Source: Thermoanaerobaculia bacterium
GTDB lineage: Bacteria > Acidobacteriota > Thermoanaerobaculia > Gp7-AA8
Length of the DNA stretch: 64,000 nt
Assembly: GCA_044866315.1 (NCBI GenBank)
Contig: JBIOTX010000044.1
Coordinates: forward strand, 10,596-74,595
Direction of reading: 5' to 3'
Shown: in pieces, positions 45,620 through 64,000 of the stretch
Numbering within the stretch: position 1 is the stretch's first letter
Layout: every line of letters starts with the position of its first letter
The notes under the pieces: generated by a model
Told to the model about the DNA's origin: nothing
The model's database searches: none
The model's input: only the letters and a program-made list of their open reading frames with translations
Program-made: the position numbers and the translations under genes

Positions 45620-45630
45620 TTAGCACATCC

Positions 45631-46470: not shown

Positions 46471-46715
46471 GGATGAATTATACCGCGTTGCGTTATCAGT
46501 AGTTGCGTTGCCGCCACTGCCCCGGTTAAGCCGACCGGCCCATGTATCATGACGACGCTCACGAATGTCTGTGCGTGTGATCACCGCGCGGCCCCTGTTT
46601 CTCGCAACGGGAAATCCTCGAAGCATATCGACATTCCTCTTTTCCGATCCGTAGCAAGGCGTCATCCCCAATCTCACTGATGTCCGACTCTGCGGAGCCC
46701 GAGTTGTCCAACAGG

Positions 46716-47609: not shown

Positions 47610-48016
47610 CTTACATCCTCCGTCAAGCTAATCTGCCGTGTCGATCCTTCGCTACCCGAAAAATGCAAGCACGATCACGATAACGGCGGCCACGCCATGT
47701 CCAAGTGTCACCACCACGACTCGCGTTGAGATCTGCCCAAGCTGCGACTGTCCAACGCTGTCTTTTATCGTTACCCTCCCTCGAACCACCGTCGTCGAGG
47801 CGACTGGGTGGTCTCCGTTCCTCACCGCGCAGTTAACAGTCAGCGATGCGTGCTCCGCAACCCTCGGAGATGCCTACCGAACGTGGAACATCACGTTCCT
47901 CATTTGGTTGGACGCTTCGGTTGACTTCGAACGATTGCTGCCGATAATGTGTGACTCACATTCCCCATCAGCTGTCAGCAACTGATGCAACACCAGATGC
48001 ACGAAGGTAATCGTCG

Positions 48017-48994
48017 TTGCGAGTAGTCTGCATTCTCGAAGAACTGCTTCGTGAACACACCGAGTTAGACGACGCAACTCTCGCGTCGCGAATCGGTGTG
48101 GTCGAGAGAACGGCCGCCAAACTCCGCCGGAACGCGCGCAACTGGAGGCTGACCCGCGAGAACCTTGAGAAACTAACGATCCTTGCGTACGAATTCGGCT
48201 ACGAGCACGGGATTTTCGAGATTCGACACCATCCTTTGTGGTCGACGTTCGCAAATTCAAACGTCACCTTGTATCGGGGTGACCAAGTCTCCGATGCCAA
48301 AGTTGAGGCGGATATTCGGGAGTTTCTCAGCCGCATTCATGCCCGACAGCAGATAACGCTTGTCAACGAGGCTACTCCGGCTGTCGCCAAAGCTATCGCC
48401 GATGCAATGCGCGGAACGAATTGCATTTTCATAGGCTCACCACGACATAACCCAGCGACGGAGATTGCACTAGCCCTCCTCTGGTCTGCAAAACCGTTCG
48501 ATTCCAATGCGGCGAACCGCGAAAAGCTGCCGTTTCACATGATTCGGTCCGATGGCGTCCCTGAAACTGCTGTGATCAGTCGTGGTAAACATGCTGGTTT
48601 TGATGTTCGCAGCGTCGACGGTCGCAAGAATTGCCTTGTTCCGGTAAGTTGGCTCGCCGCCGATGAGTACAACAAGTGGAGCGGCGAGGGCAACGACGCC
48701 GCTATGGTTGCCATATGCAGATCGCCGCTCAACTCCGCACGCCCAGTGACCTCCATCGTTATCTGTGGCTACACCGGCTTGGCTACAAAACGCGTTGCAC
48801 ATGAACTCATCGCAGGTGAACCTCCGCTCACGGCGTCCGATCTCGAGCGCGCTGGTGACCCGCGTTTGCTCGGATACTCTTTTGCCTTCAGCAAGCCGCG
48901 CGGGCAGCGTCGCGCCGGGTTCGGCGATCAGCGGAAGTTCATCGAGCGAACCGGGCGCTGGGCGCCACCGTGGGATGAAATTGCGGAGTTTTGA
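48017..48994 (+). CDS. Hypothetical protein with N-terminal HTH-like segment
   Basis: LASRIGVVERTAAKLRRNARNWRLTRENLEKL is HTH-like. The remaining Rossmann-like alternation (NCIFIGSP...IALALLW) is unassigned. Confidence 0.45.
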   Translation: MRVVCILEELLREHTELDDATLASRIGVVERTAAKLRRNARNWRLTRENLEKLTILAYEFGYEHGIFEIRHHPLWSTFANSNVTLYRGDQVSDAKVEADIREFLSRIHARQQITLVNEATPAVAKAIADAMRGTNCIFIGSPRHNPATEIALALLWSAKPFDSNAANREKLPFHMIRSDGVPETAVISRGKHAGFDVRSVDGRKNCLVPVSWLAADEYNKWSGEGNDAAMVAICRSPLNSARPVTSIVICGYTGLATKRVAHELIAGEPPLTASDLERAGDPRLLGYSFAFSKPRGQRRAGFGDQRKFIERTGRWAPPWDEIAEF

Positions 48995-49724
48995 CAACCG
49001 TACGGCTGCTTTCTCTTCCCACAATCTCACCAATGATCGCCCTAATCTGCTGTCGGCATTTCACGGGTAAATATATGGTGAATCAGAGGTTAAGTTACCG
49101 CCGGCCGCTAACTCGACTTACGTCCGACTTACCAGCTGCGAGCACCTCTACCGCGACGTGCTCTCCGGATTCGGCAAGCATTGCGCGGAGGGATTCCTGA
49201 CGCCGCGCACACGGCACCAGCGCGAGAATCGTCCTGAGCGCATTGGACATTCACGCCTTGAAGGTTCCGCTCAAACGTCCGCAGCTTCGGAAGTAGGACG
49301 CTACCCAGCGGCTCGGTTGCGAGGTCGACCTCGACCGCAAGGGCGGCGGCGGTCCTGCGCCGACGGGCCGCCTAACGCGAGAAGATCCGGCAGGACAGAG
49401 AGCGTGCCGCCGAAGAGCCGCGCGACCATCCAGGCGGGCAAGAGCTCGTCCGGTGCGGGCGCTCGCTGCGCGAGCCACACCGCTACGTCCGCGGTTGCGG
49501 TGGTGTGCTGGAAGTCCTATGCCGCTGCAGGCCCGCCAAACGCTCGACGCCGAGGTAGCCCGAGGTCAGCAAGCGCTGCAAGAACCGGGTGACGGCCGGC
49601 TCGGAGACGTCATCGAAGAACCAGCGCTTCACTGCGGACGGATGAGCATGCGGAAGCGCCCGATCGCGGCGAGGACTAGCGAAAAACTTACGCGTGATCC
49701 TGCTGTTTCCTGGCCATCGCGTCT

Positions 49725-52700
49725 TTAGAACTCCAGTCCTTTGTGGAGTGCCGCACGCTCATCCATGCGCCGCGCATGATGGTCGTAGTGGTCGGCAATC
49801 TCATTCACAACTGCAGCCGCCCCCGGCCAACGGGTCGCGAGCGCCGCAGCATGTGCTCGGTATGTCGCAGCGAGTGCCCGCTCCTGTTTTCCTCCGTCCT
49901 CCAGCCCGCGGCTCGTCACGCCGCGGCGGTTGTAGACGCCGATTGTGAACCCGTGGCGGAGGTCGTCGCTTTCGATTTCCTCCAGCACATCGCACACCGC
50001 TGGAGGAGGCCAAGGCGTGCCTCTGGAACCGCGGCCGAGCATCTCACCGATCTCGAGGTCGGCGATCTCTGCGCGATCGGCTGCAGCAGCAAGCGTTCGC
50101 GTTTCGACTACCCACGCCATGAGCCGTGCCGAATCGATTCCATTCTCGCCCCTTCCTGGGATGTGATCCCAAGTGTCGAGGAGCTCGTACGCCGCGCGCG
50201 CTTTGTTTGCCTGCTCCGCGGAAACCTCGACGTCCACGCCTCGTTCGCTTGCCGGCCGGAATATGAGCGAGATCATGTCGATGAACAGCTGCGGTTCATC
50301 TGCAAGTGCGCGATGCAGGAACTTCGGCCGCCGGATGAAGCGGCTCAGCGCCGGGAGATATGCCCACTCCAAAGCCGCGGCGCGACCAGTCGGCAATCGT
50401 CCCGGTTCGGTCACCACGTCCAGCAGTTGGCCAATGTTGTGTCCTTCGATCTGTCCGGGACGATCATCGCCTTCCCCGGGCTGCAGCAAACGCTCGAGGA
50501 CTGCCGCCGCCACTTCTGCATCGAGTGGCCGTTTCCGGCGGTGGTGCGTCGCGAGCACTTCGAGCGCCATGTGCGGTCGTTGGTATGCGAGGAGTTTCTG
50601 CGCGATCCTCTCCGCGCTCGACTCTGTTGCGCTATAGGGCAGCATGCGCCGCCAGTACTCACGCTGGACATGCTCGTCCTGTGCATCGACCAGCGCAAGC
50701 ACTTCATCAACGGGATCGCACATCGCGAGGAGGATCGCCTGCTGGTCGGCGCGCAGCGGCGGATCTGCACGGAGCCACTCTCGCACCCATTTGAGGCTAC
50801 CACGTGCGAGATCCCATGTGACTGACTGCGCCAGTTGCGCTGCGACCGGATCGTCGGAGCTCAAGTGCTCACGAATGAGCGTTTCCTTGATCTCCGGCGA
50901 CAAGTTGATCTTCGCAAACGCATTCCCTACCTCGTACGGAACAGCGACAGTACGCGCGAAATTGAGTACCGCGTCAACGCCACCTCCGTCATAGATGGTC
51001 TGGATGACCTCGTGCTGGAGAGCCGACACAGCCTCTCGCTGTTCGTCGAAGTCGCCGCTCGGCGGGTCAATGAGCTGTGCATGATGCGTAAACAACCAGC
51101 CGAACTGATCTTCCGTTCGCTCCGGCTCGAAGAGCGGCAGCAGCGTCGCAAACTGTTGGACGATATCCCCCGGCAACGCCCACTCCGCATCTTTGAAACT
51201 GCGATGCTGGGCAACCACCTCTCGAAGAGCTTTCCAGAGAACCGTTCGGTCACGGTCGCCTAGTTCTTCGCGAACCGTTTTGACCCTATCGAGGATGAGT
51301 TGTCGCTCATCAGGCGGGAGATTGGGAGCGGCCTCAATGAGTTCGGCAAGGCACGCCGCATTCGTCCCAGCCGCGTTTAGGAGCCGTTGTGTCATTTCGT
51401 GTGCGCTCGTCAGGAGATCACCGGTCGTGGTCGGCACTGCGCCCTCGGCCCACGGTTGCCATTCCGGCTGCGGGTTATGCGGTGCCGTGTCGTATCCCCG
51501 TGGCAGGAGGGTCTTTAGCAGCTTCCACGCGACCTCCGGACATCGCTTTTGAACGATCTCTAACACGGCCAACCGCGTGGTAACGCTCGCTGCAGTCTGC
51601 GGGAACCAGGGCAAGAAAATGTGCCGGAGACTCGCCATGGGGCGATTTGCCATACGGCCTCCCGGATCACGCTCCGCGAGTCGAGCGAGGGCCACAGCGG
51701 CTCGCGCAAGGTGTTCTGGGCTCCATGCGAGCCGCTCGAGCGCCCATAGAAGGCCCGTGTGCGGGGTCGGCGCAGTGAAATTTGTGTCGTCAGGCAGGAA
51801 CAGATGAATGAGCGTCGGATCGCCGCCAGAGAGGCCGGCCTCGACGGCGCTCAGAAAGACCTGCGGCGCCGCTTCGGCAAGGAGGGGCAGGCAGTGCGAG
51901 AGAGCCGCCCAGATTCTCCAGTTGGTGTTCGCGGTCGAGAGCACCTTCCCGACGGTCGTCGCAGCCACATGAGCGCCTGTCACGCTGCCGGCCCGAACAC
52001 GCTTGGCGCCCACCGTGCCGAGAACGGCGAGCGACTCCGCGATGCCTTCGGCCAAGTAGCCAGAGCGCGTGAGTACGTGGTTCGTCAGCGAGGCGCGCCA
52101 TTGCTCATCGCGTGGCAGGTCATACCTCGGGTCAGGTTCGACGAGAACGCGTTCGGCAACCGTGCGAAATCGCGTGAGGTGGTCGTTCGTGACATACGGA
52201 GCGAGTAGTGTCCACGCGTCTTCCTTGGTCGGTAAGAACCATGTCCCATCGACTTCGCGGATTGGCGAATCAGGCTCGTGTAGCCATCGCCGCAGATCTC
52301 CAATGGCTGCATCGTACGGCTTGCCGGTTAGATCTTCGACCGCTGTGCGATCCGCCGTTTTCCCTCCACTCCACGATCCGAGGAGAAGAGACGGTACGAG
52401 CGTTGGTCCGTTGACCGGATCGGACCAGGCTGGACGCTGTGTCTCTGGCCGAACGGCGAGCTTGCGGTAGAAGGCGGCGAAGCTCCTCGCGGCAACCCGC
52501 GCAAGAGTCCGGGCTTCCGTGTCCTTCTTTCCGGCGGCTCTCAGAAACGCTTTGGCAGCGTCACGGTTCAGCCCCTCTAACGGATCGAGAAGATCGCGCG
52601 GCGCGTTGCGTTCCGCCGGCAACAATAGGCGGTGCCGAGCAGCGCGAACGCGTCCAATCTCGATCCCCTGGAACGTCGGGATCAGAATCAGGGGCGACGC

Positions 52701-53519
52701 AGTGGTCGCAAGGTGCCGGACTGATTCCGCATCGTGGACCATGAGTGTTCGTGCGAGAACGTCCTCGTGGTCCGCCTGCGGCAGCGTGAGGAGCGCCGAG
52801 ACGATGATTCCGATCGCTTCATGACGTGTCTCACCGACGACCGCATGCGTTTCTTGGTCACCCGACGCTACGGCCCGAATCGCCGCAACCACAGCATCAC
52901 GGCCCGCAATCAAAAGCTCCGGCTTAAGCGGCGGTTCCGCTGCTGCGGTGTACGCCGCCCAATACCGCTCGAGGTCTTCAGCTCCTGCAGGATGCTTCCC
53001 GAGCAAGTGGGAAATCCAGAAGTGGACCGCAGGCGCAGCTTCGAGCCATTGCTCCAAATCGTCCGCGTCGAGAACGCGGATGCCCTTCCAGATTCCCTCA
53101 GCCGCCTTTTCCCTCGCCCAATCGTATTTCTTCTGCCATCGCCGCGGCGTGACGGCGACGTACACAGTATCTTTGGGGATCACTCCCGCCGGGTTCTTGC
53201 TGCGTTTCGCGTAGTCGGCTTCTGCTTTCGAACGCGGATTCGTGTCCGCGCCCATTTCCCAGACGGACCCACCGGCAGAAACGAATGCCGTCGCCTCGCG
53301 CGCGCGCACGATGCCATCCCATCCTGGCCGTCCAACGCTGTCGCCGCCGGGGAATGCTGCGCGGTCAAGCGTGGGTGTTGTGGCCCGAACAAGACGGCGA
53401 ACGAGAATCGGAAGTGTGGTCTGCGCATCTTTCGTTGCAGCCCACCGGGCTAGATCCGTTGCAGTTGCGAAGGTAAGGAGTGTCATCTGCTTGTCCGTGC
53501 TTCTGTGTGAGGGCGCCAC
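49725..53519 (-). CDS. Large (1264 aa) alpha-helical repeat protein with uncharacterised N-terminal domain
   Basis: N-terminal ~180 aa (TFATATDLARWAA...PGWDGIVRA...GGSVWEMGADTNPRSKAEADYAKRS...IRVLDADDLEQWLEAAP), then more than 1000 aa of HEAT/ARM-like helices. It is divergent from the adjacent NACHT-like gene. Confidence 0.6.
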   Translation of the reverse strand: MAPSHRSTDKQMTLLTFATATDLARWAATKDAQTTLPILVRRLVRATTPTLDRAAFPGGDSVGRPGWDGIVRAREATAFVSAGGSVWEMGADTNPRSKAEADYAKRSKNPAGVIPKDTVYVAVTPRRWQKKYDWAREKAAEGIWKGIRVLDADDLEQWLEAAPAVHFWISHLLGKHPAGAEDLERYWAAYTAAAEPPLKPELLIAGRDAVVAAIRAVASGDQETHAVVGETRHEAIGIIVSALLTLPQADHEDVLARTLMVHDAESVRHLATTASPLILIPTFQGIEIGRVRAARHRLLLPAERNAPRDLLDPLEGLNRDAAKAFLRAAGKKDTEARTLARVAARSFAAFYRKLAVRPETQRPAWSDPVNGPTLVPSLLLGSWSGGKTADRTAVEDLTGKPYDAAIGDLRRWLHEPDSPIREVDGTWFLPTKEDAWTLLAPYVTNDHLTRFRTVAERVLVEPDPRYDLPRDEQWRASLTNHVLTRSGYLAEGIAESLAVLGTVGAKRVRAGSVTGAHVAATTVGKVLSTANTNWRIWAALSHCLPLLAEAAPQVFLSAVEAGLSGGDPTLIHLFLPDDTNFTAPTPHTGLLWALERLAWSPEHLARAAVALARLAERDPGGRMANRPMASLRHIFLPWFPQTAASVTTRLAVLEIVQKRCPEVAWKLLKTLLPRGYDTAPHNPQPEWQPWAEGAVPTTTGDLLTSAHEMTQRLLNAAGTNAACLAELIEAAPNLPPDERQLILDRVKTVREELGDRDRTVLWKALREVVAQHRSFKDAEWALPGDIVQQFATLLPLFEPERTEDQFGWLFTHHAQLIDPPSGDFDEQREAVSALQHEVIQTIYDGGGVDAVLNFARTVAVPYEVGNAFAKINLSPEIKETLIREHLSSDDPVAAQLAQSVTWDLARGSLKWVREWLRADPPLRADQQAILLAMCDPVDEVLALVDAQDEHVQREYWRRMLPYSATESSAERIAQKLLAYQRPHMALEVLATHHRRKRPLDAEVAAAVLERLLQPGEGDDRPGQIEGHNIGQLLDVVTEPGRLPTGRAAALEWAYLPALSRFIRRPKFLHRALADEPQLFIDMISLIFRPASERGVDVEVSAEQANKARAAYELLDTWDHIPGRGENGIDSARLMAWVVETRTLAAAADRAEIADLEIGEMLGRGSRGTPWPPPAVCDVLEEIESDDLRHGFTIGVYNRRGVTSRGLEDGGKQERALAATYRAHAAALATRWPGAAAVVNEIADHYDHHARRMDERAALHKGLEF

Positions 53520-53697: not shown

Positions 53698-56600
53698 ATG
53701 AGCTCTTCATCGAGTGCCGGCGGTGCAGCTGCGGCTGGCGGGACGACGTTTGAAGCGCGCGTCGCCGGGTGGTACGGCGCGCACATGCTGGCCGAAGCCG
53801 GCGCTCCGAGCGTCCCCGGTCACGCTTCCACTGCTCGGGTGCAGTACCTGCGTTGCCAGAGCGGCGAAGCCGTAGACGACATCCTCGTCGGGTTCTCAGA
53901 CGGCGGACATGACTTCGTACAGGCTAAACGGTCGTTGAGCCTCAAGGTCGGCGAAAATTCCGAGCTTGCGAAGGCCCTCGACCAGTGCGTTCGCCAGGTC
54001 GTTGGAAGCCGGGGCGACGACAAGGGTGGGCGACCGTGGGATCGTCCCCTCGATCCTGCGCGCGATCGTTTAGTGCTCGCCGTGGGCGCGTCGAGTTCAA
54101 AGCCGATTCGCGACGATCTTGCGGCTGTGCTCCCGCGGGTACCTGACCTCCGGCCCCAGCAGCCGCTGACCGATGCCGCCCTCACCACAGCGCAGTCGAA
54201 CGCGCTCGCTGTCGTCTCGGATCACGTTCGGCGGAGCTGGAAAGCAGCAACCGGCGTCGATGCAACCGACGACGACCTGCGCACGCTGCTATCACTCCTC
54301 TCCGTCCTAGAGTTCGACGTTGATCCCGGCGGCGCCAACGAGCGCGAGGCGTTGTTGCTGCTCCGCAGTGCCGTCGTGCACGAGCCGACACACGACGCGG
54401 CTGCGTGGCACGTCGTCTGGAGTACGACGGCGCAGTGCGCGCAAGACCAATCGGGCCTTGACCGCCGCGGACTGGAAAAGGCGGTGCGGAACGCTGGCAT
54501 CAGGATGCGCGGCGTTCGGAGCTACGAGCAAGACGTCAACCGGCTCAAGGCGACGTCGATGCAGGCGATGGCGCTCGTTGAGCGCTTCGCCTCCTTCGAG
54601 AGCGGCGGTGCAGTGATCAAGCTTCCGCGCGACGTAAGCGACACAATCGGCACGCTTGCGATGCACCACTCGTTTGCGATCGTGGGCGAGCCGGGCGCCG
54701 GGAAATCTGCGGCGCTGTACGAAGCTGCTGCCGCGCTCGCGCCGAACACCGCGGTCGTGGTTCTCCAAGCGCTCGACGTGGCGTGCCGGAACCTCGCAGA
54801 ACTCCGTCAGCAGCTCGGCCTCGAGCACCACCTCGTTGAGGTGCTCGACAACTGGCGCGATGCCGACGTGGGCGTCCTGTTCATCGATGCCCTCGATGCC
54901 GCCCGGGATGAAGCCTCCGCGCGGACGTTGCGGGATCTTATGGATTTGGTGTTGAAGAAGGCGTCGCGCTGGCGAGTCGTGGCATCTATCCGGTCATTCG
55001 ACCTGAAGCAAGGTACGCACTACCAGCACGTCTTCCATGGATCGCTCGCGGATGTGCCGGCGGAATTTCAGCGGTCTGAATTCGCGCAGGGGCGGCACGT
55101 CTTCGTGCCACGGTTGAGCGATCAGGAACTGGCGGAGCTCGCGACACTCGCGCCGCTCCTTCGTCCGCTCATCGACTCCGCGTCCGGACCGCTGAAAGAC
55201 CTCCTGCGCGTCCCGTTCAACGTCCAGCTGCTCGCGCAGCTCGTGGACGATGGCGCGGAGCTCTCCGCGCTTCAGCCCCTGCGAACGCAGGGCGAGCTCC
55301 TCGACTTGTACTGGTTGCGTCGCGTGCGACGGGACGCGCACGGAGATGCGCGCGAAAGCCTCCTCCGGCGCGTCTGTGAGCAGATGGTCGCCGCGCGGCA
55401 ACTGCGGGTGGACCGCACGAGTTTGTCGCTCGGGTCCACCGAGTCGAGCCTCCTCCACGACCTGTTGTCCGCACACGTCGTGATGGAACTTGACAGCCCG
55501 CACGCACGCGTGTTGACGTTCTCGCATCACGTCCTGTTCGACTACGCTGCGGCGCGACTCCTCCTCCCCGTAGAGCCCGGGGATCTCGCGACCTATCTTG
55601 CGTCTGAGCCTTCGCTCGTCTTCGTGCTCCGGCCGAGTCTCGTGCTCGCGTTTCACGAACGGTGGTGCCACAGCCGAGAGGCCTTTTGGGCGACGACGCT
55701 GCGCCTAATCGCCGACGATCGGATCGAGGCGGTGGGGGAAGTCATCGGTCCGGTGACAGCGGTTGACCTCGCGACGAGCGACGAGGACTGGAATCCCGTC
55801 TTTGAGGCGCTCGCAGGTGCCAATCCTAGTATGCAGGCTGCGGCGGCGAAGGCGTTGCAGTACGTCGTTGGCTCGCTCCTCGCGGGGAGCCTGAGGCCGA
55901 CGGTCGGCGCAGATGCGGCTCCGTGGGCGGCGCTCGCGGAACGCATCGCCGCATCCCTACGGCCGGACCTCACGGGCGCGCTTCGAGTGCTGCTGTACCA
56001 GCTTACCGAGAAGGATGGTGAGATGACGCCCGAGGAGCGTGCCAGCGCCGGCCGTGCGGCACGCCTGCTGTTGCAGTACGCAGAACGCGAGCTGCCGAAC
56101 AACCGGAACCTCGTCAACGCGAGCATCGTGTTCGTTGCTCGCACGATTGCGACTGCCCCTTCGGCGTCGACGCTGCTCCTGCGGCGTTCCTTGGAGCCTG
56201 ATCGTGTGCAACAGTTCGGCTATCACGAACTGCCGGCGCTCGCGCGCGAAGTGCAGCACCTCATGGCGGATCCAGCTTTCGTAGCGGATCTCTACGTAGC
56301 CACCTTCTCGTTCACGGAGAAATCGAAGGAAACGACGGCAATCGGCAGGAGCGCGATCCTCCCGTTGAGTTCGAACCGTGCTCAGGACTACGAAGGAGCG
56401 TACTACGCACTCGCGGAAGCGTTCCCCGCGTTCTTCGAAGCGTCGCCGGTTCACGCTACGGGCGCGCTAGTCCGTGCCATCGATGCGTTCATTCAGGAGG
56501 AGCACCCACCCGCGTCGGGCATCATCGAGGAGGAGACGTTCACAGTTGGCGAGGCGCCTGTCCGCCTCCGAACCGACTACAGCGAGATTTGGGACAAGAC

Positions 56601-58662
56601 GCCGCACGACGACGCCCAGCGGCTGCTGATCGCGTTTGAGGAAGGCCTGCTCGCCCTCGCCGACGCCGGAGCAGCACAGACACTCCGAGACGTGCTCATG
56701 GTCGTTGTCGGCAGCAACCGCATGGCGGCTGTCTGGCGGCGGCTGCTCCGTGCGGGCGCGCAACGGCCCGGCACGCTGGGCGTCCTGCTCGCCCCGCTGC
56801 TCCAGCGGCCTGTGTTCGACGCATACGACACGTCAAGGGCGGCTGTGCGTCTCGCGCAGGCCGTGTACCCGCACCTTGCGGCGCCGGAGCGCGAAAAGCT
56901 CGATGAGGTTTTGCTTTCGCTCTCCGACACCGCGGACAAAGGACGGCCTGCGCGTGAGCGGCTTCGGGATGAGTGCGTCGGCGGCCTGCCGCAGGAGCTG
57001 CTCCAGAAGCAGGAGTTGCGCGATCTTGCCGGTCGCCTCGCGGCCACGAGGGACCGTGCGGGTGATGCGGCGGCTCGCCACCCCTCCGCAGCCGCCGATG
57101 ACGTCGACAAGGACGACGAGGACGACGATGATGAGGACTTCACGATGTCCACGGGTTGGCTCGATCCCGATGATGCGATGCTCCAGCTAGAAGGAGTCAA
57201 CGTGGCTGACGAAGCGAGTGCATACCTTCGCTCGCTGGTCGCACCGGTGCAAGCGTTCGCCAACAAACACACGAACACGGAGCCTGAACTGGGTGAGGTC
57301 GAGCAGATCCTGCCCGAAATTACACATTTGGAAGAAGCCGCAATCGATGGTGAATGGCGCAGGATACACGTACGAGTGCTGAAGCTCGCGCGTGTCGTAG
57401 TAGCCGAAGCATACTCCGTCATCCCGAAGTGCCGCGCGCTCCCGCCGGACCATGCCGCGCTGCAGCGCGCGCGGCAGGGCTTGCTTCAGGCGGCAACGAG
57501 CGCATCACCTGAAGTGGACGACAAAATCGAAGCAAATTGGGACATGAAGGGTAGCGGCTGGGGGCCCGCGGATCGGATCGAAGCGGGACAAGGGCTGCTG
57601 TACCTCGCTCGCCGGAAGGAGACGTGTGACTCCGAAGTTCTCGACGCTTTAGAAACATTGGCGGCTGATCCGGTTGCAGCAGTTCGATACCAGATTGCGG
57701 CAAACCTGAATCTCCTTTACTACACGGCGCGCGACCGCATGTGGAGCATCCTCGAGCGGCGCATCGCTGAAGAGCAGCGCGGGGGCCTGGCGAACGCCCT
57801 CCTCGCGTCCTTGCGCAGGTTGATTCCTGCCGACGAGGAGCGGGTGGCGGGGCTCGCGATTCAACTCGCAACGCGCTTCGCTGCACACAAAGAGGTGGCA
57901 CGCTCCTCCACGAAACTCCTCACCGCGATGTGGATCTGGCGAAAGACTGCCGGAGCCCGGGCGCATGTGGACCGCGCGATCGCCAACGTCAGCACTGCAC
58001 CGGAGGTCGCGGGTGCCGTTTTCCACGTCATTCGGAAGCCGCTCGCTCATGGCGCGCTCGGCGACCCAGAGGTGGAAGACGTCCGCGAACGGACCTTCGA
58101 AGTCACGAAACAGCTCCTCGCGAATGCGCTCGAATCCTACCGTACCGGTATCGAGGGGCAGGACTTCTCGGTACGCGGTGAAGCCGAGGTCGAGAATGCA
58201 CGCGCCATCGTTGGGATCATCGATGGGGTTGCGCGCGAACTGTACTTCGCCTCGGGCGCGCATGATCGATCAGAACGACGGCCCGCTGACGAACCGAAGC
58301 AGCGCCGGTTCTATACGGAAGCGGGTGGGGTGATCGACCTCCTCATCACGACCGGTCTGCCACCGGCGACGCACTCACTCGTGAAGATGTTCGAGTCGAT
58401 GATCGACCTGCAGCCGGCGGAAATCTTCTTCCGTATTCGCGATCTGATCCGCGCTGGCCACGCAGCAGGCTACTCACAAGAAGGTCTGGCGATCGACTTG
58501 GTCGTGAGGATTGTCGAGCGATACCTCGCCGACTATCGGCACCTCTTTCAAGCGAGTGCGGAACTGCGTGCGGCGCTGAGCGAGATTCTCAACCTCTTCA
58601 TCGCTGCTGGGTGGCCTCAGGCGCTTCGTCTGGCCTCACGTCTCGAAGACATCTTCCGCTAA
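53698..58662 (+). CDS. Bacterial NACHT/STAND-like P-loop NTPase (1654 aa) with N-terminal nuclease-like (DUF4297/Cap4-like, tentative) domain and C-terminal helical repeats
   Basis: Walker A FAIVGEPGAGKSAALY. Walker B VLFIDALDAARDE has the NACHT-like hhhhD[GA]hDE form. The N-terminal segment GEAVDDILVGFSDGGHDFVQAKRS looks like a PD-(D/E)xK unit (D ... QxK). An acidic stretch DDVDKDDEDDDDED is followed by about 700 aa of ARM/HEAT-like repeats. Confidence 0.65.
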   Translation: MSSSSSAGGAAAAGGTTFEARVAGWYGAHMLAEAGAPSVPGHASTARVQYLRCQSGEAVDDILVGFSDGGHDFVQAKRSLSLKVGENSELAKALDQCVRQVVGSRGDDKGGRPWDRPLDPARDRLVLAVGASSSKPIRDDLAAVLPRVPDLRPQQPLTDAALTTAQSNALAVVSDHVRRSWKAATGVDATDDDLRTLLSLLSVLEFDVDPGGANEREALLLLRSAVVHEPTHDAAAWHVVWSTTAQCAQDQSGLDRRGLEKAVRNAGIRMRGVRSYEQDVNRLKATSMQAMALVERFASFESGGAVIKLPRDVSDTIGTLAMHHSFAIVGEPGAGKSAALYEAAAALAPNTAVVVLQALDVACRNLAELRQQLGLEHHLVEVLDNWRDADVGVLFIDALDAARDEASARTLRDLMDLVLKKASRWRVVASIRSFDLKQGTHYQHVFHGSLADVPAEFQRSEFAQGRHVFVPRLSDQELAELATLAPLLRPLIDSASGPLKDLLRVPFNVQLLAQLVDDGAELSALQPLRTQGELLDLYWLRRVRRDAHGDARESLLRRVCEQMVAARQLRVDRTSLSLGSTESSLLHDLLSAHVVMELDSPHARVLTFSHHVLFDYAAARLLLPVEPGDLATYLASEPSLVFVLRPSLVLAFHERWCHSREAFWATTLRLIADDRIEAVGEVIGPVTAVDLATSDEDWNPVFEALAGANPSMQAAAAKALQYVVGSLLAGSLRPTVGADAAPWAALAERIAASLRPDLTGALRVLLYQLTEKDGEMTPEERASAGRAARLLLQYAERELPNNRNLVNASIVFVARTIATAPSASTLLLRRSLEPDRVQQFGYHELPALAREVQHLMADPAFVADLYVATFSFTEKSKETTAIGRSAILPLSSNRAQDYEGAYYALAEAFPAFFEASPVHATGALVRAIDAFIQEEHPPASGIIEEETFTVGEAPVRLRTDYSEIWDKTPHDDAQRLLIAFEEGLLALADAGAAQTLRDVLMVVVGSNRMAAVWRRLLRAGAQRPGTLGVLLAPLLQRPVFDAYDTSRAAVRLAQAVYPHLAAPEREKLDEVLLSLSDTADKGRPARERLRDECVGGLPQELLQKQELRDLAGRLAATRDRAGDAAARHPSAAADDVDKDDEDDDDEDFTMSTGWLDPDDAMLQLEGVNVADEASAYLRSLVAPVQAFANKHTNTEPELGEVEQILPEITHLEEAAIDGEWRRIHVRVLKLARVVVAEAYSVIPKCRALPPDHAALQRARQGLLQAATSASPEVDDKIEANWDMKGSGWGPADRIEAGQGLLYLARRKETCDSEVLDALETLAADPVAAVRYQIAANLNLLYYTARDRMWSILERRIAEEQRGGLANALLASLRRLIPADEERVAGLAIQLATRFAAHKEVARSSTKLLTAMWIWRKTAGARAHVDRAIANVSTAPEVAGAVFHVIRKPLAHGALGDPEVEDVRERTFEVTKQLLANALESYRTGIEGQDFSVRGEAEVENARAIVGIIDGVARELYFASGAHDRSERRPADEPKQRRFYTEAGGVIDLLITTGLPPATHSLVKMFESMIDLQPAEIFFRIRDLIRAGHAAGYSQEGLAIDLVVRIVERYLADYRHLFQASAELRAALSEILNLFIAAGWPQALRLASRLEDIFR

Positions 58663-58976: not shown

Positions 58977-59588
58977 TTAGTCCTGTTCCGGCGCGAGCTC
59001 GGAAAGTTTCCGCCAAAGCGCGTCGAGGTCGATCGAAAATCCCTCGCATCCCGGAACGTTCGTCATCGTTCCTTCCGTTGCGTAGGCGGCGCGCGCATAG
59101 CGACCATCCGTCAGCTCCCAGACTTCCAGCGACTGCAGCCGCGGATCGAGAATCCAGTAGTAACGAATTCCGAACGATGCGTACTCGGCCATCTTCTCGA
59201 TGCGATCGCGCCGTTCATCGCGCGGCGTGGACGACACCACTTCGACGGCGATGTCCGGGGGCGTGCTGAGGGCTCCGTTACGCGGAATCTTCTGATTCCG
59301 ACCGGGCAGATAAACGGTGATATCGGGTTTGCGTCCCCGATCATCCCCAACCGCATATTTGGCATCCGAACCGAGAATCCAGCCCTGTTCTCCAAGCCAA
59401 TTTCCGAGCACGCGTCCCAGCCACATCACCACGATCTCGTGCACGGCACTCGACACTTCCTCCTCCTCCAGGCGGCCGTCGACGAGCTCTCCCGGCTCAT
59501 CCTCGTCCATCGCCGCCCACTCTTCGAGAGTGAGGTGACGGCCGAGGATGGGGCGTGGGTCTTCGACAGAGGCAAGCGACATGATCAC
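58977..59588 (-). CDS. Uma2-family (DUF820) PD-(D/E)xK endonuclease
   Basis: Core KPDITVYLPG...PPDIAVEVVSSTP (D...EVxS) and the typical ~200-aa length. Confidence 0.7.
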   Translation of the reverse strand: MIMSLASVEDPRPILGRHLTLEEWAAMDEDEPGELVDGRLEEEEVSSAVHEIVVMWLGRVLGNWLGEQGWILGSDAKYAVGDDRGRKPDITVYLPGRNQKIPRNGALSTPPDIAVEVVSSTPRDERRDRIEKMAEYASFGIRYYWILDPRLQSLEVWELTDGRYARAAYATEGTMTNVPGCEGFSIDLDALWRKLSELAPEQD

Positions 59589-59751
59589 AAGATGTTAGCA
59601 CCGTGGAGTGCCCGGCCGTAGCCGTCGTTGAGGGTATTCTTCATGCAGCGGACGGGCGGAAACCGCTGGTTCGCAGCGTATGGTTCGTGGTCCGGGACGG
59701 CGACGCAGCGACGCTGGTCACTGCCTACCCACTGGAGGGGAGGTCGAAACG

Positions 59752-59979
59752 ATGATCCGAGAGCTTGATCGTGTGGTCCTGAACACACGGCTCGACGCAT
59801 TGAGCCTCGAGCCAGGCGACGTCGGAACCGTCGTGCTCGTCCATGACGGTGGCCGAGGATTCGAAGTCGAGTTCGTGACGCTCGGCGGCGAAACCTACGC
59901 CGTGACCACCCTCATGCGCGACGACGTCCGTCCGATCGACCGCAACGAGATCGCGCACGCGCGCGTGGTCGCGGCCTGA
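59752..59979 (+). CDS. DUF4926-domain small protein
   Basis: MIRELDRVVLNTRLDALSLEPGDVGTVVLVHDGGRGFEVEFVTLGGETYAVTTL matches the DUF4926 pattern. The SD ggaggggagg precedes ATG 59752; the track ORF starts earlier at 59680. Confidence 0.55.
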   Translation: MIRELDRVVLNTRLDALSLEPGDVGTVVLVHDGGRGFEVEFVTLGGETYAVTTLMRDDVRPIDRNEIAHARVVAA

Positions 59980-60004: not shown

Positions 60005-60280
60005 ATGAGCGACCTCGCCAACCGCATCGTCCAGAAGCTCTGGTCCTACTGCAACGTCCTGCGCGACGACGGGCTCTCGTACCAGGACTACCTCGAGCAG
60101 CTCACCTTCCTGCTCTTCCTCAAGATGGCCGACGAGCGCGCGCGGCTCACCGGCGAGGAGCAGGCCATTCCCGCCGGCCATCGCTGGGCCGACCTGGCCG
60201 CGCCGCAGATGGAAGGGGTCGAGCTCGTGGCGTGTTACCGGCCCGGCGACCGCCACACCTCCCCGACCCGCACATCCTGG
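60005..60280 (+). pseudogene. hsdM: N-terminal fragment of a type I restriction-modification HsdM subunit
   Basis: MSDLANRIVQKLWSYCNVLRDDGLSYQDYLEQLTFLLFLKMADERA...IPAGHRWADLA matches the HsdM N-terminal domain. The frame then degenerates into Arg/Ser-rich nonsense, and no methylase catalytic domain follows. Confidence 0.5.
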
Positions 60281-60396
60281 CGCAGGAGGTCGCCGACGAT
60301 CTGCGATCGGCTCTTGCCCAGATCGAAGACGTCCTGGGGGACCTGGAGCAACGAGCGGTCGCGACCGCCTCTTCGGAGTGACAGCGGGCACCGTGC

Positions 60397-60438
60397 GCGC
60401 AGCACCGGCGATGGTCCTCGGATCTGACGCTCAGATCC
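60397..60438. repeat. 42-bp direct repeat copy 1 with internal perfect hairpin (GGATCTGA-cgc-TCAGATCC)
   Basis: gcgcagcaccggcgatggtcctcggatctgacgctcagatcc; 38/42 identical to copy 2. Confidence 0.6.
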
Positions 60439-60544: not shown

Positions 60545-60586
60545 GCGCAGCACCGGCGATGGTTCCCGGATCTGAGGCTCAGATCC
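60545..60586. repeat. 42-bp direct repeat copy 2 with internal hairpin (GGATCTGAG-g-CTCAGATCC)
   Basis: gcgcagcaccggcgatggttcccggatctgaggctcagatcc; lies 106 bp downstream of copy 1. Confidence 0.6.
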
Positions 60587-60636: not shown

Positions 60637-60891
60637 CTACGCTGTGTTTCTTGGGGTGAAGTAAGAACACACGGTCGAGCCACAAGTGCACGCGCAGCAA
60701 TTTTGATACTGCACGCACTGATTGTATTGATAGTTGATGCACTCCCAGCCGGTACACCCCGCATCCCGGCACTGTACGAGCATGTCACTGGCGTCGGACT
60801 CCGGCGCCAGGGCGAGAGCGCCCACGGCGACGGCAAGCAAGAGCAGGTTGATCCATAACCGGCGAGAGGAACGGATCGCGATCGATTTCAT
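60637..60891 (-). CDS. Small secreted Cys-rich peptide (84 aa precursor; 9 Cys in ~48-aa mature region)
   Basis: Sec-type leader MKSIAIRSSRRLWINLLLLAVAVGALALAPESDA. The core is QCRDAGCTGWECINYQYNQCVQYQNCCACTCGSTVCSYF. Confidence 0.5.
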   Translation of the reverse strand: MKSIAIRSSRRLWINLLLLAVAVGALALAPESDASDMLVQCRDAGCTGWECINYQYNQCVQYQNCCACTCGSTVCSYFTPRNTA

Positions 60892-60945
60892 GGAAGGCCT
60901 CGGCGACGAGATCTCACATGGCGTTGTCGCGAGCCAGGCCCCCGT

Positions 60946-61185
60946 TCACTCCGCCAGCGGCGAGCACCTTGCGTAGTCTTCTTCGCACCCGATCAGACAA
61001 TAGAACTGTCCCTCCGGGATGCGCTCAACGTCGTAACAGCCTGCCTTGCAGGCGTCACGCTCCTTTTTGCAGTCTCTGGCCTCGCCACTCGCGGAGGGCG
61101 CCAGTGCCAGCGCACCCAGCATAATGCTGAGAATCAGCACGTTGATCAGAAGACGCCGGCGGGAGGAAGTCGCGATCCATTTCAT
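60946..61185 (-). CDS. Small secreted Cys-rich peptide paralog (79 aa precursor; 6 Cys)
   Basis: Leader MKWIATSSRRRLLINVLILSIMLGALALAPSASG is about 60% identical to the neighbouring leader. The core is DCKKERDACKAGCYDVERIPEGQFYCLIGCEEDYARC. SD GGAGG lies 7 nt upstream of ATG (complement 61183-61185). The track shows it only as the tail of the longer ORF 60946..61542. Confidence 0.5.
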   Translation of the reverse strand: MKWIATSSRRRLLINVLILSIMLGALALAPSASGEARDCKKERDACKAGCYDVERIPEGQFYCLIGCEEDYARCSPLAE

Positions 61186-61680
61186 GCTCAGCCTCCGTTT
61201 GGAAGAGTTTTTTGTTACTGCACGAGCCATGGATCTTAGGCGACATCGTCGCCATCTCTGCGCCCCGTTCGAGGGGGTTGGCCACCCCTCCCGATGAGGG
61301 GTTCGGGACCTGCCCGCCGTCCAATCGTGCTCCCATTGCCGCCGCACTCCAAAACGTGTTACGCGCGCGTGAACACGCCTGACTCGCGTGGCCGTGTTCA
61401 CAGCACAGTAGCGGCGGTCCTGATTCAAAAACCCGATCGCGCGAACGCGACTCTCCGAATGGAACGCCCGCCGTAACCTCCACGCACCACCACACCACGC
61501 CCCTGAAAATCCGTCTCGTCCCTCCCCGGCAGCGGTTCGCATCGCCGTCCCAGCGTCTCGTCACATTGCCCGCCTTCCTCGCCGAACCGGCAGCCCGATT
61601 GCCCTTCTGATCCGCGCACGCTGTTCGTTCGAGCGTTCACGCGAATCACCGAACCATCTCACTGATCAGAAGGAGTTTTC

Positions 61681-64000
61681 ATGAAATTCACGCATCGCAT
61701 GAGGATAGGACTCACCGCGCTGTGCCTGTTGTTGTCGTTGCCCACATTCGCCGCCGTGACAGGCAATCTGTACGGCGTGGTCACCGACTCGAGTGGAGCG
61801 GTTTTGCCGGGGGTGACCGTGACGGCCACCAGCCCGGTGCTGCAGGGCACGCGCACCTCGATCACCAATGAAGCGGGCGAATACCACCTGCAGCTTCTCC
61901 CCCCCGGCGTCTACCGCGTCGAGCTCTCGCTGTCCGGGCTGAACCCGGTGGTGAAGGAGAACATCAACGTCGGCCTCGATCAGACGACGAAGCTGGACGT
62001 GCAGATGCAGATGGGTGCGGTGTCGGAGGCCATCACGGTCACCGCTGATGCGGTGGTGGTCGATCCGACGCAGACGACGGTGCAGCAGAACTTCGGTCAG
62101 CAGCATCTGAAATACGCCGCCATCGGTCAGGCCGGGCGGACATATCAGTCCGTTCTGCAGCAGGCCCCCGGTGTGGCCGGCGCCGCCGGCGGCAATCCGC
62201 AGGTAATGGGTGCGAATCTCGGGCAGAACAACTACATGCTGGACGGCGTGAACACGACCGATCCGGTGACGCACACGTTCGGCTCGAATCTGCCCTTCGA
62301 CGCGATCCAGGAAGTCTCGATCCAGACCCTCGGCAAGGACGCCGAGTACGGGCGCGCGATCGGCGGCGTGGTCAACGTCGTCACCAAGACCGGCGGCAAT
62401 GAGTTCACCGGGACGCTGGACGCGCGCATCACCAACGAGGATCTGTCGGAGTCCGGCGATCACTTCGACGCCGACTCGCAGAACTTCCAGAACTTCGCTC
62501 CCTCCGCCACCCTCGGCGGCCCGATCAAGAGAGACAAGATCTGGTTCTTCGGCTCGGTCGACCGGCCGGACACCGCTCGCGACAACCCGGCCCGCCCCGG
62601 CGCGAACTGGCAGTCGGGAACGCGTACGTTCCAGGGCTGGAACTCGCTCGGGAAAATCACCGCGACGCCGGCCGCGAATCACACCCTGGCCTTCCGTTTC
62701 ACCGACAACCGCGCCGACATCGAGAACTCCCAGGACGACCCGCTGTTCCGTCCGGAAGCGGACTCGCTGCAGACCCAGGAGTCCACCATCTACAACCTGG
62801 GATATGACGTCATCATCACTCCCCAGTGGCTGGCCAGCGCCCAGGTCGGCGTGCGCCGCGGCTTCCTCGAGACCCGCCCGATGAACGGTGACCTGAACAC
62901 CGTGGGCATCACCAACAACACCACCGGCGTGCGCTGGTCCGCGTACACCAACCACCAGGGCGGCGACCGCAACCGCGATGAGCTCATCGCCTCGACGACG
63001 TACTTCTGGAACGGCATGGGCTCGCACACGTTCAAGCTCGGGCTCAACTTCGATCAGTCCGAGTTCTCCTCCTTCAACAACGTGACCGGCCTCGGCGTCG
63101 ACCAGTCGCTCTGCTCGACCGCCTTCGGCCACCCGGCCGGCTCGATCTGCGGCGCGACTCAGATCAACCTCGGCGGCGGCGTAAATGACATCGGCACCAA
63201 CCGCCGCCTGACGGTCACGAACGTCCTGCCGACGGAGACCTACGAGAGCGACCTGCAGGCCTATTACGTTCAGGACGAGTGGCACCCCATCGCTCCGGTG
63301 ACCCTGCGGCTCGGCCTGCGCTACGAGGCCGTCGACTTCTCCACTCCCGGCGCGGACACGCCGACCCTGGACAAGCTCCAGCCGCGCCTCGGCGCGGCCT
63401 GGGACATCTTCAACAACTCCAATACGATCCTTCACGGCTTCTGGGGCGAGGTCATGGACGACAACGGCCTGACCCTGGCGAGCTTCCTGAGCCAGCAGGG
63501 AGCGGTCAGCGCGCTCTTCGACTGGAACGCGGCTTCCAACAGCTGGGTCTATCTCACGACCATCGGCGGACCGTCCGGCAATGAGTTCGACGCGGACCTG
63601 AAGCCGACCTACGGCACGGAGATGAACCTCGGCTTCACCCAGCGCGTCTGGACCAACACGGCCATCGACGTCACCGCCATCTGGCGTGAGACCCACGACA
63701 TCTTCGAGGACGCATGCGCGGACGAGGAGTGCCATTTCTTCTCTCTGACCAACCATCCGCACGGCTTGGGCGACGCTCTCCGCGGTGAATACCAGGCGTA
63801 CATCGCCAAGATCGAGACCCGTCCGTATTCGTGGCTGAGCGGTCTCGTCAGCTACACCTATGCGACCTCGGAAGGCTCCGTCGAATACACCCAGAATGCG
63901 GGCGCGGATTTCGACGTGGCCCCCGATCACGTGGTGAATCGCTTCGGCTATCTGTCCGATGACGCGCGCCATCGCATCAAGGCGTCCGGCTTCGCCCGTG
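61681..64000 (+). CDS. Partial CDS (3' end beyond window): CarbopepD_reg-like and TonB-dependent receptor-like outer-membrane protein
   Basis: SD aaggag before ATG 61681. Signal peptide MKFTHRMRIGLTALCLLLSLPTFAA. GNLYGVVTDSSGAVLPGVTVTATSP is a carboxypeptidase-regulatory-like domain. A plug-like region follows (TVTADAVVVDPTQTT...). The frame stays open to the window end, and the antisense 768-aa ORF on the minus strand is spurious. Confidence 0.7.
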   Translation, partial: MKFTHRMRIGLTALCLLLSLPTFAAVTGNLYGVVTDSSGAVLPGVTVTATSPVLQGTRTSITNEAGEYHLQLLPPGVYRVELSLSGLNPVVKENINVGLDQTTKLDVQMQMGAVSEAITVTADAVVVDPTQTTVQQNFGQQHLKYAAIGQAGRTYQSVLQQAPGVAGAAGGNPQVMGANLGQNNYMLDGVNTTDPVTHTFGSNLPFDAIQEVSIQTLGKDAEYGRAIGGVVNVVTKTGGNEFTGTLDARITNEDLSESGDHFDADSQNFQNFAPSATLGGPIKRDKIWFFGSVDRPDTARDNPARPGANWQSGTRTFQGWNSLGKITATPAANHTLAFRFTDNRADIENSQDDPLFRPEADSLQTQESTIYNLGYDVIITPQWLASAQVGVRRGFLETRPMNGDLNTVGITNNTTGVRWSAYTNHQGGDRNRDELIASTTYFWNGMGSHTFKLGLNFDQSEFSSFNNVTGLGVDQSLCSTAFGHPAGSICGATQINLGGGVNDIGTNRRLTVTNVLPTETYESDLQAYYVQDEWHPIAPVTLRLGLRYEAVDFSTPGADTPTLDKLQPRLGAAWDIFNNSNTILHGFWGEVMDDNGLTLASFLSQQGAVSALFDWNAASNSWVYLTTIGGPSGNEFDADLKPTYGTEMNLGFTQRVWTNTAIDVTAIWRETHDIFEDACADEECHFFSLTNHPHGLGDALRGEYQAYIAKIETRPYSWLSGLVSYTYATSEGSVEYTQNAGADFDVAPDHVVNRFGYLSDDARHRIKASGFAR

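Follow-up and report, generated by a model that had tools for sequence, protein, structure and literature searches.

Two adjacent genes from a soil Thermoanaerobaculia bacterium encode putative exported cysteine-rich mini-proteins with a shared leader and unrelated cores

What kind of product is made by two neighboring genes that share a leader and have unrelated sequences behind it? This question is raised by pepA (61185..60946, minus strand; 79 amino acids, 6 cysteines) and pepB (60891..60637, minus strand; 84 amino acids, 9 cysteines), which lie in a 64,000-nucleotide stretch of a Thermoanaerobaculia genome (GenBank assembly GCA_044866315.1, contig JBIOTX010000044.1, positions 10,596 to 74,595), hereafter referred to as the window. 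A preliminary description of this DNA had pointed out two adjacent minus-strand genes of 84 and 79 codons with 9 and 6 cysteines, and their positions and cysteine counts are confirmed here. Disulfide-rich mini-proteins are valued as stable scaffolds for drugs and probes; they are well known in animals, plants, and fungi, and few are documented in bacteria. In soil, Acidobacteria are abundant, and their secreted effectors are almost unknown. We find that pepA and pepB belong to a rare family in which one leader is joined to several unrelated cysteine scaffolds. We consider it reasonably probable that their products are Sec-exported, disulfide-rich mini-proteins that are folded by a dedicated oxidoreductase and act as antagonistic, inhibitory, or protective effectors.

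pepA and pepB are real genes. As the preliminary description had recognized, one of the two is hidden within a longer open reading frame (ORF): pepA forms the C-terminal part of a mechanically defined ORF of 198 amino acids (60946..61542). The 79-amino acid version is the one called independently for each of the NCBI, Logan, and ENA assemblies. This short start is supported because a Shine-Dalgarno sequence, GGAGG (61192..61196, minus strand), lies 7 nt 5' of the ATG, because the independent calls agree on it, and because the members of the family described below all align from their first methionine. A GGAGG- or AGGAG-like site is found at an equal distance in all eight family genes whose DNA was examined. 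The two genes are separated by a 54-nt spacer (60892..60945, minus strand) that contains the pepB ribosome-binding site, GAGG (60901..60898), and the GC content at third codon positions is 0.72-0.73 in the called frames of both. Upstream of pepA, a 495-nt intergenic region (61186..61680) separates it from a divergently transcribed gene for a TonB-dependent receptor. The promoters are presumed to lie in this region; a sigma-70 consensus scan of it returned no match, and an Rfam scan of the locus also returned none.

In both proteins, the leader spans residues 1-34 (MKWIATSSRRRLLINVLILSIMLGALALAPSASG in pepA, 61185..61084; MKSIAIRSSRRLWINLLLLAVAVGALALAPESDA in pepB, 60891..60790; both on the minus strand). 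It is followed in pepA by a type-A core with 6 cysteines (EARDCKKERDACKAGCYDVERIPEGQFYCLIGCEEDYARCSPLAE, 61083..60949, minus strand), spaced C-x6-C-x3-C-x12-C-x3-C-x6-C, and in pepB by a type-B core with 9 cysteines (SDMLVQCRDAGCTGWECINYQYNQCVQYQNCCACTCGSTVCSYFTPRNTA, 60789..60640, minus strand). The two leaders align without gaps and are identical at 19 of 32 positions (59%; BLASTP E = 0.003 in a single comparison). Thus, the shared leader of the preliminary description stands, while its term "near-identical" was an overstatement. Its statement that the mature regions differ completely agrees with our finding that no alignment of the two cores could be obtained. The leader similarity is family-specific. 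A hidden Markov model (HMM) built solely from seven leaders that belong to other organisms, with pepA and pepB excluded, scores pepA at 53.0 bits and pepB at 62.3 bits, and the next best of approximately 4000 ORF starts in the window, genuine signal peptides included, scores 8.1 bits. Ten of the 19 residues common to both leaders are encoded by differing synonymous codons, and therefore the likeness is preserved at the protein level and does not stem from a recent duplication of DNA. A local duplication of non-coding DNA, which the preliminary description had named as a case that would count against it, is likewise at odds with these synonymous codon differences and with the preservation of the frames in relatives.

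Relatives were sought with a word-indexed search that covered 5.8 billion proteins and with an exhaustive HMMER profile search that covered 1.84 billion representatives. In the word-indexed search, pepA returned no homologue beyond 99%-identical variants, and pepB returned one real homologue, P0002, which is 74% identical and retains all nine cysteines. When a profile of pepB and P0002 was compared to the 1.84 billion representatives, it recovered five small proteins (P0005-P0009; 76-99 amino acids; E 1.3e-10 to 5.8e-5) that can be aligned over both leader and core, starting at Met1; the remaining two matches are large repeat proteins. The alignment of pepB and P0002 found no match in metagenomes and GTDB genomes, and a hand-made degenerate DNA pattern of the leader gave two matches, both of which are due to chance. 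The pepA/pepB locus was also read in the metagenome-assembled genome (MAG) GCA_044867665.1, on contig JBIOVK010000060.1. The preliminary description had proposed a genome-wide search for further members, and a third one, the 9-cysteine type-B protein P0017, is encoded on another contig of this MAG (JBIOVK010000186.1; L053 10001-14213). The P0017 gene is flanked on one side by a gene for a GGDEF protein and on the other by genes for an AraC regulator and then a tricorn/S41 protease (1008 amino acids). The family comprises approximately 12 sequences among 15 billion, and the relatives all come from soil metagenomes. It is genuine, very rare, and lineage-restricted, belonging to soil Acidobacteriota (Thermoanaerobaculia-like). 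Searches of pepA and pepB against Pfam and NCBIfam gave nothing above threshold, as did Pfam searches with all family members; the PDB holds no significant relative, and no description of the family turned up in literature searches.

The predicted mature products of the family are 41-64 residues long and contain 12-19% cysteine; they are rich in aromatic residues and in Gln/Asn, and their net charge ranges from -5 to 0. pepA and pepB both combine a match to the external leader HMM with a cysteine-rich core in this size range, the combination by which we define the family. Type-B cores share the invariant arrangement C-x3/4-C-x7/8-C-x5-CC...G-x3-C, to which 0, 2, or 3 extra cysteines are added. 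The invariant residues, in pepB numbering, are C46, C51, C59, Q63, C65, C66, G71, and C75. Members with six cysteines have the invariant set only, those with eight add C41 and C68 jointly, and those with nine (pepB, P0002, and P0006/P0017) also have C70. The gain or loss of C41 and C68 as a pair argues for a C41-C68 disulfide; no partner cysteine is visible for C70. A third scaffold, type C, is found behind the same leader in L046b, L057_92, and L057_86 (leader HMM scores of 40-50 bits) and has the arrangement C-x16/17-C-x9/10-CC-x-C-x2-CC-x3-C with the motif PDI.KPH[ST].G. One leader thus carries at least three unrelated cysteine scaffolds, and the conserved leader with unrelated cysteine-rich cores that the preliminary description had seen at a single locus is a true property of the family.

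The way in which one scaffold may take the place of another can be seen by comparing the window to locus L057, where the gene order is type C, a gene for a thioredoxin-fold protein (Trx; 204 amino acids), type C, and type B. In L057, the place of pepA is taken by L057_92, which lies upstream of the Trx gene. Over the stretch that starts with the ribosome-binding site and ends with the codons for ...PSASG, the two genes are 80% identical in DNA (94/117 nt); beyond the leader, the core and the DNA flanking it have 37-40% identity, which is background. On either side of the replaced core, the encoded proteins are conserved between the two loci, with 71% identity for Trx and 74% for pepB. These data show a replacement of the core behind a retained leader, and not gradual divergence. 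We also considered pepA as a frameshifted type-C core and rejected this idea, as the other frames show no trace of one. The pair represents a clear natural case of a leader retained and a core replaced at an orthologous position.

Across loci, the conserved partner of the peptide genes is the thioredoxin-like gene and not the TonB receptor gene. A gene for a membrane-anchored thioredoxin-fold protein with a CPAC motif, either intact or as a remnant, adjoins the peptide genes in five of eight locus types. It is intact in the sister strains L058 and L059, in L057, on the P0002 contig, and in L047. In Pfam, the L057 protein exceeds the threshold of Thioredoxin_8 (29.1 bits versus 27) and that of Thioredoxin (24.1 versus 23.5). 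L058 and L059 carry the Trx gene (179 amino acids, CPAC) between pepA and pepB, and the L058 Trx is the protein that is 71% identical to that of L057. In L047, the gene directly upstream of P0007 encodes a CPAC thioredoxin-fold protein of 182 amino acids that has a membrane helix at its N-terminus. The end of the L046 contig cuts the gene, and the 30 codons that precede P0005 there encode a homologous thioredoxin C-terminus (59% identity over 27 amino acids, E = 5e-6). Upstream of P0008 in L048, positions ~270-470 hold a Trx remnant in which the frame is broken and the catalytic domain deleted and the membrane helix and C-terminal tail are still recognizable; the Trx gene has thus been lost twice, independently. 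The other loss concerns the window strain itself. Together with five other assemblies that are more than 99% identical, the window strain has the 54-nt spacer where L058 has about 590-600 nt with the Trx gene. Thus, peptide genes with an adjacent CPAC thioredoxin gene are present in L058/L059 and not in the window, and no copy of the cassette Trx was found in the window, L001, L007, or L053. The pepA-pepB spacer is the scar of a strain-level Trx deletion.

The cassette has a history of its own relative to the DNA beside it. When the window is compared to L058, there are 0 mismatches in 2746 nt on the receptor side (64000..61255) and 24 mismatches in the cassette between 61254 and 60682, with 14 of these in 61254-60989 and 10 more across pepB. 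The boundary at ~61254, 69 nt from the pepA start codon on its 5' side, is sharp and marks the cassette as a separate recombination tract. Between the two strains, pepB has 7 synonymous and 2 non-synonymous differences (ratio of non-synonymous to synonymous change, pN/pS, 0.09) and is under purifying selection. For pepA the differences are 3 synonymous and 5 non-synonymous, with four of the latter five located in the core (pN/pS 0.52, from small counts).

How would such proteins leave the cytoplasm? The family leader is 30-36 residues long, roughly MKSIa..SsRRLL.NLLvLavMlGALALAPaAsA/G. It consists of a basic n-region and a hydrophobic h-region with a mean Kyte-Doolittle value of 2.2-2.9 over 15 residues, and a polar residue (N, H, or R) is conserved near position 15, where the hydrophobic stretch begins. 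Every leader has a proline that is followed 3-7 residues on by a small-x-small motif (ASG, ASA, AQA, AEA, or AAG). The Sec signal and the signal-peptidase I site were assigned by inspection and hydropathy, the same basis on which pepA and pepB show the Sec signal peptide expected of Sec-dependent bacteriocins; cleavage is predicted at ASG|E in pepA and at SDA|S or DAS|D in pepB. The preliminary description had called the leader Sec-type, and the basic n-region, the strong h-region, and the small residues at -3/-1 agree with this. Tat signals have a nearly invariant twin arginine in an S/T-R-R-x-F-L-K motif and a weakly hydrophobic h-region. Export by this pathway was considered and rejected: the Tat-like RR pair is found in 9 of 12 leaders and is missing from P0005, P0009, and P0002 together with P0014, a close variant of the latter, the h-region is strongly hydrophobic, and there is no TAT_signal match in Pfam or NCBIfam. 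Neither a lipobox nor a double-glycine motif was matched in the leaders of pepA, pepB, or the family. Sec export followed by cleavage by signal peptidase I is the best inference.

Taken together, these features suggest the following course of events. The leader would bring the pre-peptide to the Sec translocon, and signal peptidase I would cut after the small-x-small motif. The membrane-anchored CPAC thioredoxin-fold protein encoded in the cassette would then oxidize or isomerize the cores in the periplasm; in the window strain, the general Dsb machinery or a DsbA-like CPYC protein from the adjacent operon would substitute for the deleted Trx. The folded mini-proteins would act outside the cytoplasm in a toxin- or bacteriocin-like or an inhibitor-like manner, and the cassette would be exchanged between strains, with cores replaced behind the kept leader. 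Dedicated oxidative folding is suggested because a periplasmic thioredoxin-fold protein is encoded within the cassette. An antagonistic or protective role would fit three features, namely the unrelated cores on one leader, the strain-to-strain exchange of the cassette, and its place at the edge of a strain-variable, defense-type region. Export, cleavage sites, disulfide formation, and the role of Trx are all predicted features in this scheme, as is any biological activity of the two products.

Several points weigh against this reading. The AlphaFold2 models are weak (pLDDT 68.7 for pepA and 44.9 for pepB), so that the fold, the disulfides, and the oxidized state are predicted only. The pepA model shows a helix at residues 5-13 and a hairpin at 27-42, and the pepB model is unusable; a Foldseek comparison of the weak pepA model to the PDB gave nothing with E below 4. 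The cysteine count of pepB, P0002, and P0006/P0017 is odd (9), so that one thiol would stay free or be used in a dimer or a metal site. The mature net charge of -5 to 0 is unlike that of typical cationic antimicrobial peptides. At the loci that were read, neither an outer-membrane export system nor an immunity gene was seen, so a role confined to the periplasm is just as possible. The Trx-like partner is closest to the TlpA/ResA/StoA-type group, whose members are often reductants rather than oxidants, and the window strain lacks the Trx gene, yet both peptide ORFs are intact. Finally, the family is known from only ~12 sequences. As a separate matter, we considered whether pepA might be a three-disulfide helical hairpin of the alpha-hairpinin or twin-CX3C type and rejected this, as the weak AlphaFold2 model gives one helix and a beta-hairpin.

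The arrangement may work like that of Sec-dependent, oxidoreductase-assisted disulfide bacteriocins. Thiol-disulfide oxidoreductases are encoded beside the disulfide bacteriocins sublancin (BdbA/BdbB) and enterocin F4-9 (PMC6606811), and EntV passes through Sec, then DsbA, and then an extracellular protease, its dsbA gene being located elsewhere on the chromosome (PMC6606811). The likeness consists in a small, exported cysteine-containing peptide and, for sublancin and enterocin F4-9, an oxidoreductase in the gene cluster. These bacteriocins, however, are from Firmicutes and have 1-2 disulfides, one core type, and immunity genes; sublancin and the glycocins have a double-glycine leader and an ABC exporter, and EntV has a long pro-region. 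In contrast, the pepA/pepB family has a diderm host, 3-4 putative disulfides, and several cores, shares no sequence similarity with them, and has no exporter, immunity gene, or glycosyltransferase at the loci read. The idea that pepA and pepB are class II bacteriocins of the double-glycine type was rejected, as the alignments contain neither a GG/GA/GS motif at -2/-1 nor a non-hydrophobic leader of 15-30 residues, and no ABC/C39 gene is adjacent. A conserved signal with variable cysteine frameworks in tandem multigene families is also known from conotoxins (PMC11860864) and the mussel MgCRP-I peptides (PMC4558851). These are eukaryotic, usually contain a pro-region, and are folded in the endoplasmic reticulum with protein disulfide isomerase; there is no homology, and the analogy is one of architecture only. 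By extension, we tentatively suggest, as an idea that has perhaps a modest chance of being correct, that the conserved, membrane-inserting leader does more than direct Sec export and is a docking module, acting perhaps by way of the polar residue near position 15, that presents any cysteine-rich core to the cassette Trx as foldase. With entire cores exchangeable in this way and the cassette passed from strain to strain, it would be a plug-and-play generator of novel disulfide-rich effectors in Acidobacteria and a bacterial counterpart of the venom-peptide superfamilies.

Among the other functions that could be assigned to the two proteins, the one that survives best, while still unlikely, is that they are periplasmic or secreted protease inhibitors that regulate serine proteases, including the nearby S8 and tricorn/S41 enzymes, or protect against them. 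At each of the two peptide loci of the MAG, genes for an AraC paralogue (34% identity between the two over their full length) and for a secreted protease are found nearby, the protease being S8 beside pepA/pepB and tricorn/S41 at L053, and anionic, aromatic-rich, protease-resistant scaffolds suit inhibitors better than they suit pore-forming antimicrobial peptides. The 9-cysteine type-B motif Q-x-CC-x3-CG-x3-C also gives the only PDB match, which is to the WAP domain of nawaprin. WAP domains include inhibitors of the elafin/SLPI type. Type-B cores with 9 cysteines resemble WAP domains (nawaprin 1udk, elafin, and SLPI) in the spacing C-x5-CC-x3-CG-x3/4-C, in having approximately 8 cysteines, and in small size, but the N-terminal half of the core differs, and the 6-cysteine members lack two of the WAP cysteines. 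The resemblance is not significant (E = 0.8 in the PDB profile search; a probability of 2.6% when five WAP domains were compared by hhalign), there is no Pfam WAP match, and the WAP spacing expression for 8 cysteines, C-xn-C-xn-C-x5-C-x5-CC-x3-5-C-x3-4-C, fails for all members, so we reject WAP homology. Moreover, no protease gene is present beside the peptides in L047, L048, or L057, nor in the readable parts of L046 (611 nt) and of L049, which is cut off, and the S8 gene of the window strain is five genes off, in a divergently transcribed run.

It is less likely still that the products are thiol-based metal-binding (Cu or Zn) or redox peptides whose cysteines are kept reduced by a TlpA-like Trx, possibly in connection with TonB uptake. 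The TlpA/ResA/StoA-like character of the Trx partner would fit such a role, as would the CCxCxC cluster and odd cysteine count of pepB, which are compatible with a metal site, and the position of a TonB-dependent receptor gene beside the window locus. Part of the pepA core (CYDVERIPEGQFYC) weakly resembles the zinc-binding PHD finger of BRD1 (E = 1.2), a match that is not significant. However, the invariant residues other than cysteine are Gln, Gly, and aromatics, and His is nearly absent; the extra type-B cysteines come and go in pairs (C41 with C68), as disulfide partners would; and the link to the receptor is not conserved.

Another scheme, which we regard as improbable, leaves the leader uncleaved, so that it serves as a permanent transmembrane helix tethering a cysteine-rich domain to the inner membrane beside the thioredoxin, which is itself membrane-anchored. 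The leader is unusually long and conserved and has the polar residue near position 15, as might be expected of such an anchor, but all members have the helix-breaking proline and the small-x-small motif of a canonical signal-peptidase I site.

The layout of a conserved leader and a variable cysteine-rich core is also the classic one of precursors of ribosomally synthesized and post-translationally modified peptides (RiPPs), in which the N-terminus is the recognition leader for a modifying enzyme. This reading had been put forward in the preliminary description as one of several, and the nearby S8 protease has a weak, sub-threshold likeness to proteases of the PatA/QhpE type. RiPP leaders are soluble recognition leaders, bufferins excepted, whereas the pepA/pepB leader is a strongly hydrophobic, Sec-type signal peptide with A-x-A-type ends. 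The preliminary description had also proposed that modification and immunity genes be looked for nearby, and none was found at the loci read. Pfam, NCBIfam, and the gene tables revealed no maturase, whether a radical SAM enzyme, YcaO, lanthipeptide synthetase (LanM/LanB), MNIO, or another, in the window or in L001/L007/L058, L047, L048, L049, L052/L053, or L057, and the only recurrent partner is the thioredoxin-fold protein. A RiPP origin is thus highly improbable. Last, that pepA and pepB are spurious ORFs or a non-coding duplication, as might be supposed of small, unannotated frames in a genome of 63% GC that is full of chance ORFs, is effectively refuted by the comparative data, in which homologues with 38-74% identity preserve frame, length, and all scaffold cysteines, pepB has a pN/pS of 0.09, leader residues are conserved through synonymous change, and ribosome-binding sites are present throughout.

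Two further classes of known peptides were considered and set aside. Bacterial cis-defensins, which adopt the CS-alpha-beta fold, form five classes, and a cis-defensin from Acidobacteria has been reported (PMC11561630); they too are small bacterial peptides with a Sec signal and 3-4 disulfides. In the CS-alpha-beta fold, three disulfides staple a helix to a beta-hairpin; the pepA model gives a helix and a hairpin at low confidence (pLDDT 68.7). P0006, P0017, and P0007 formally match the CS-alpha-beta regular expression of Zhu, C...CXXXC...GXC...CXC (PMC11561630), but pepA, pepB, and 7 of 10 relatives do not; the invariant cysteine set contains no CXC, and CX3C is not conserved. No family member matches a Pfam defensin model above threshold. 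Membership in the big defensins (PF14862) was rejected as well, as pepA scores 21.5 bits, below the threshold of 25, over residues 16-50, which are mostly signal peptide.

The locus offers new cysteine frameworks for which no relative was detected in Pfam, NCBIfam, or the PDB, and the dedicated thioredoxin-like partner could aid folding in recombinant production. If the peptides prove to be antimicrobial or protease-inhibitory, they would constitute a new bacterial source of disulfide scaffolds; if not, the cassette would still provide a compact model of dedicated oxidative folding in a diderm.

The DNA that follows pepB varies among strains. A 42-nt palindromic repeat (copy 1, 60545..60586, minus strand; palindrome GGATCTGAGCCTCAGATCC) lies 51 nt after the pepB stop codon. 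With a predicted RNA folding energy of -58 kcal/mol (z = -2.5), it is likely a terminator or a hairpin resembling repetitive extragenic palindromic (REP) elements. Copy 2 (60397..60438, minus strand) lies at the junction with the strain-variable DNA. The perfect palindrome of the repeat is GGATCTGAG(C/G)CTCAGATCC; there are two copies in the window, where it occurs nowhere else, and three in L003 (1008-1323) at a spacing of ~148 nt. What follows pepB is a truncated N-terminal hsdM fragment (60005-60427), a DUF4926 gene (59680-59979), and a Uma2 gene (58977-59588) in the window, Uma2 directly in L058, and an orphan 185-amino acid gene in L003. Beyond Uma2, a protein of 1654 amino acids (53698-58662, plus strand) matches the PADLOC candidate defense family PDC-M54A from end to end with 1334 bits and has no Pfam match. 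The region downstream of pepB looks like a variable region of the defense-island type. Farther along, 44291-53519 contains five ORFs (297-1264 amino acids) with no Pfam or PADLOC match, and its GC content swings between 57 and 63%; this segment may be further strain-specific island content.

On the other side of the cassette, the 5' part of the receptor gene (920 amino acids; CarboxypepD_reg, Plug, and barrel) occupies 61681..64000 on the plus strand and runs off the window. The gene diverges from pepA and is the first of several genes in the same orientation, which extend past the end of the window and encode AraC, a secreted cysteine-rich orphan of 168 amino acids, a DsbA-like CPYC protein (339 amino acids), and an S8 peptidase. 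The DsbA-like gene is four genes beyond the receptor and encodes an oxidoreductase distinct from the cassette Trx. The preliminary description had linked the peptides to the TonB receptor: the adjacency is real, with the receptor starting at 61681, but the association is not conserved, either at the orthologue of the receptor or at other peptide loci. The best relative of the receptor, with 60% identity, is encoded by another Thermoanaerobaculia MAG that has no peptide genes at that place; none of 37 related receptor loci contains peptide, AraC, DsbA, or S8 genes; and no receptor gene is present at the other peptide loci. We therefore rejected the receptor as a functional partner.

The 168-amino acid orphan (L001 2602-3108, minus strand, outside the window) has 13 cysteines and a signal ending in ...AWA|Q, and it has no homologue among the 5.8 billion proteins searched. 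Its gene is followed after 8 nt by the DsbA-like gene, which in turn shares a 4-nt overlap with the S8 peptidase gene. The N-terminus of the orphan has the spacing C-x3-C-x6-C...C-x6-C-x3-C, a mirror image of the pepA spacing; homology between the two was considered and is not significant. Antisense to the receptor gene, a 768-amino acid ORF (61666-63972, minus strand) is a chance ORF of the kind typical of high-GC DNA and is not a gene.

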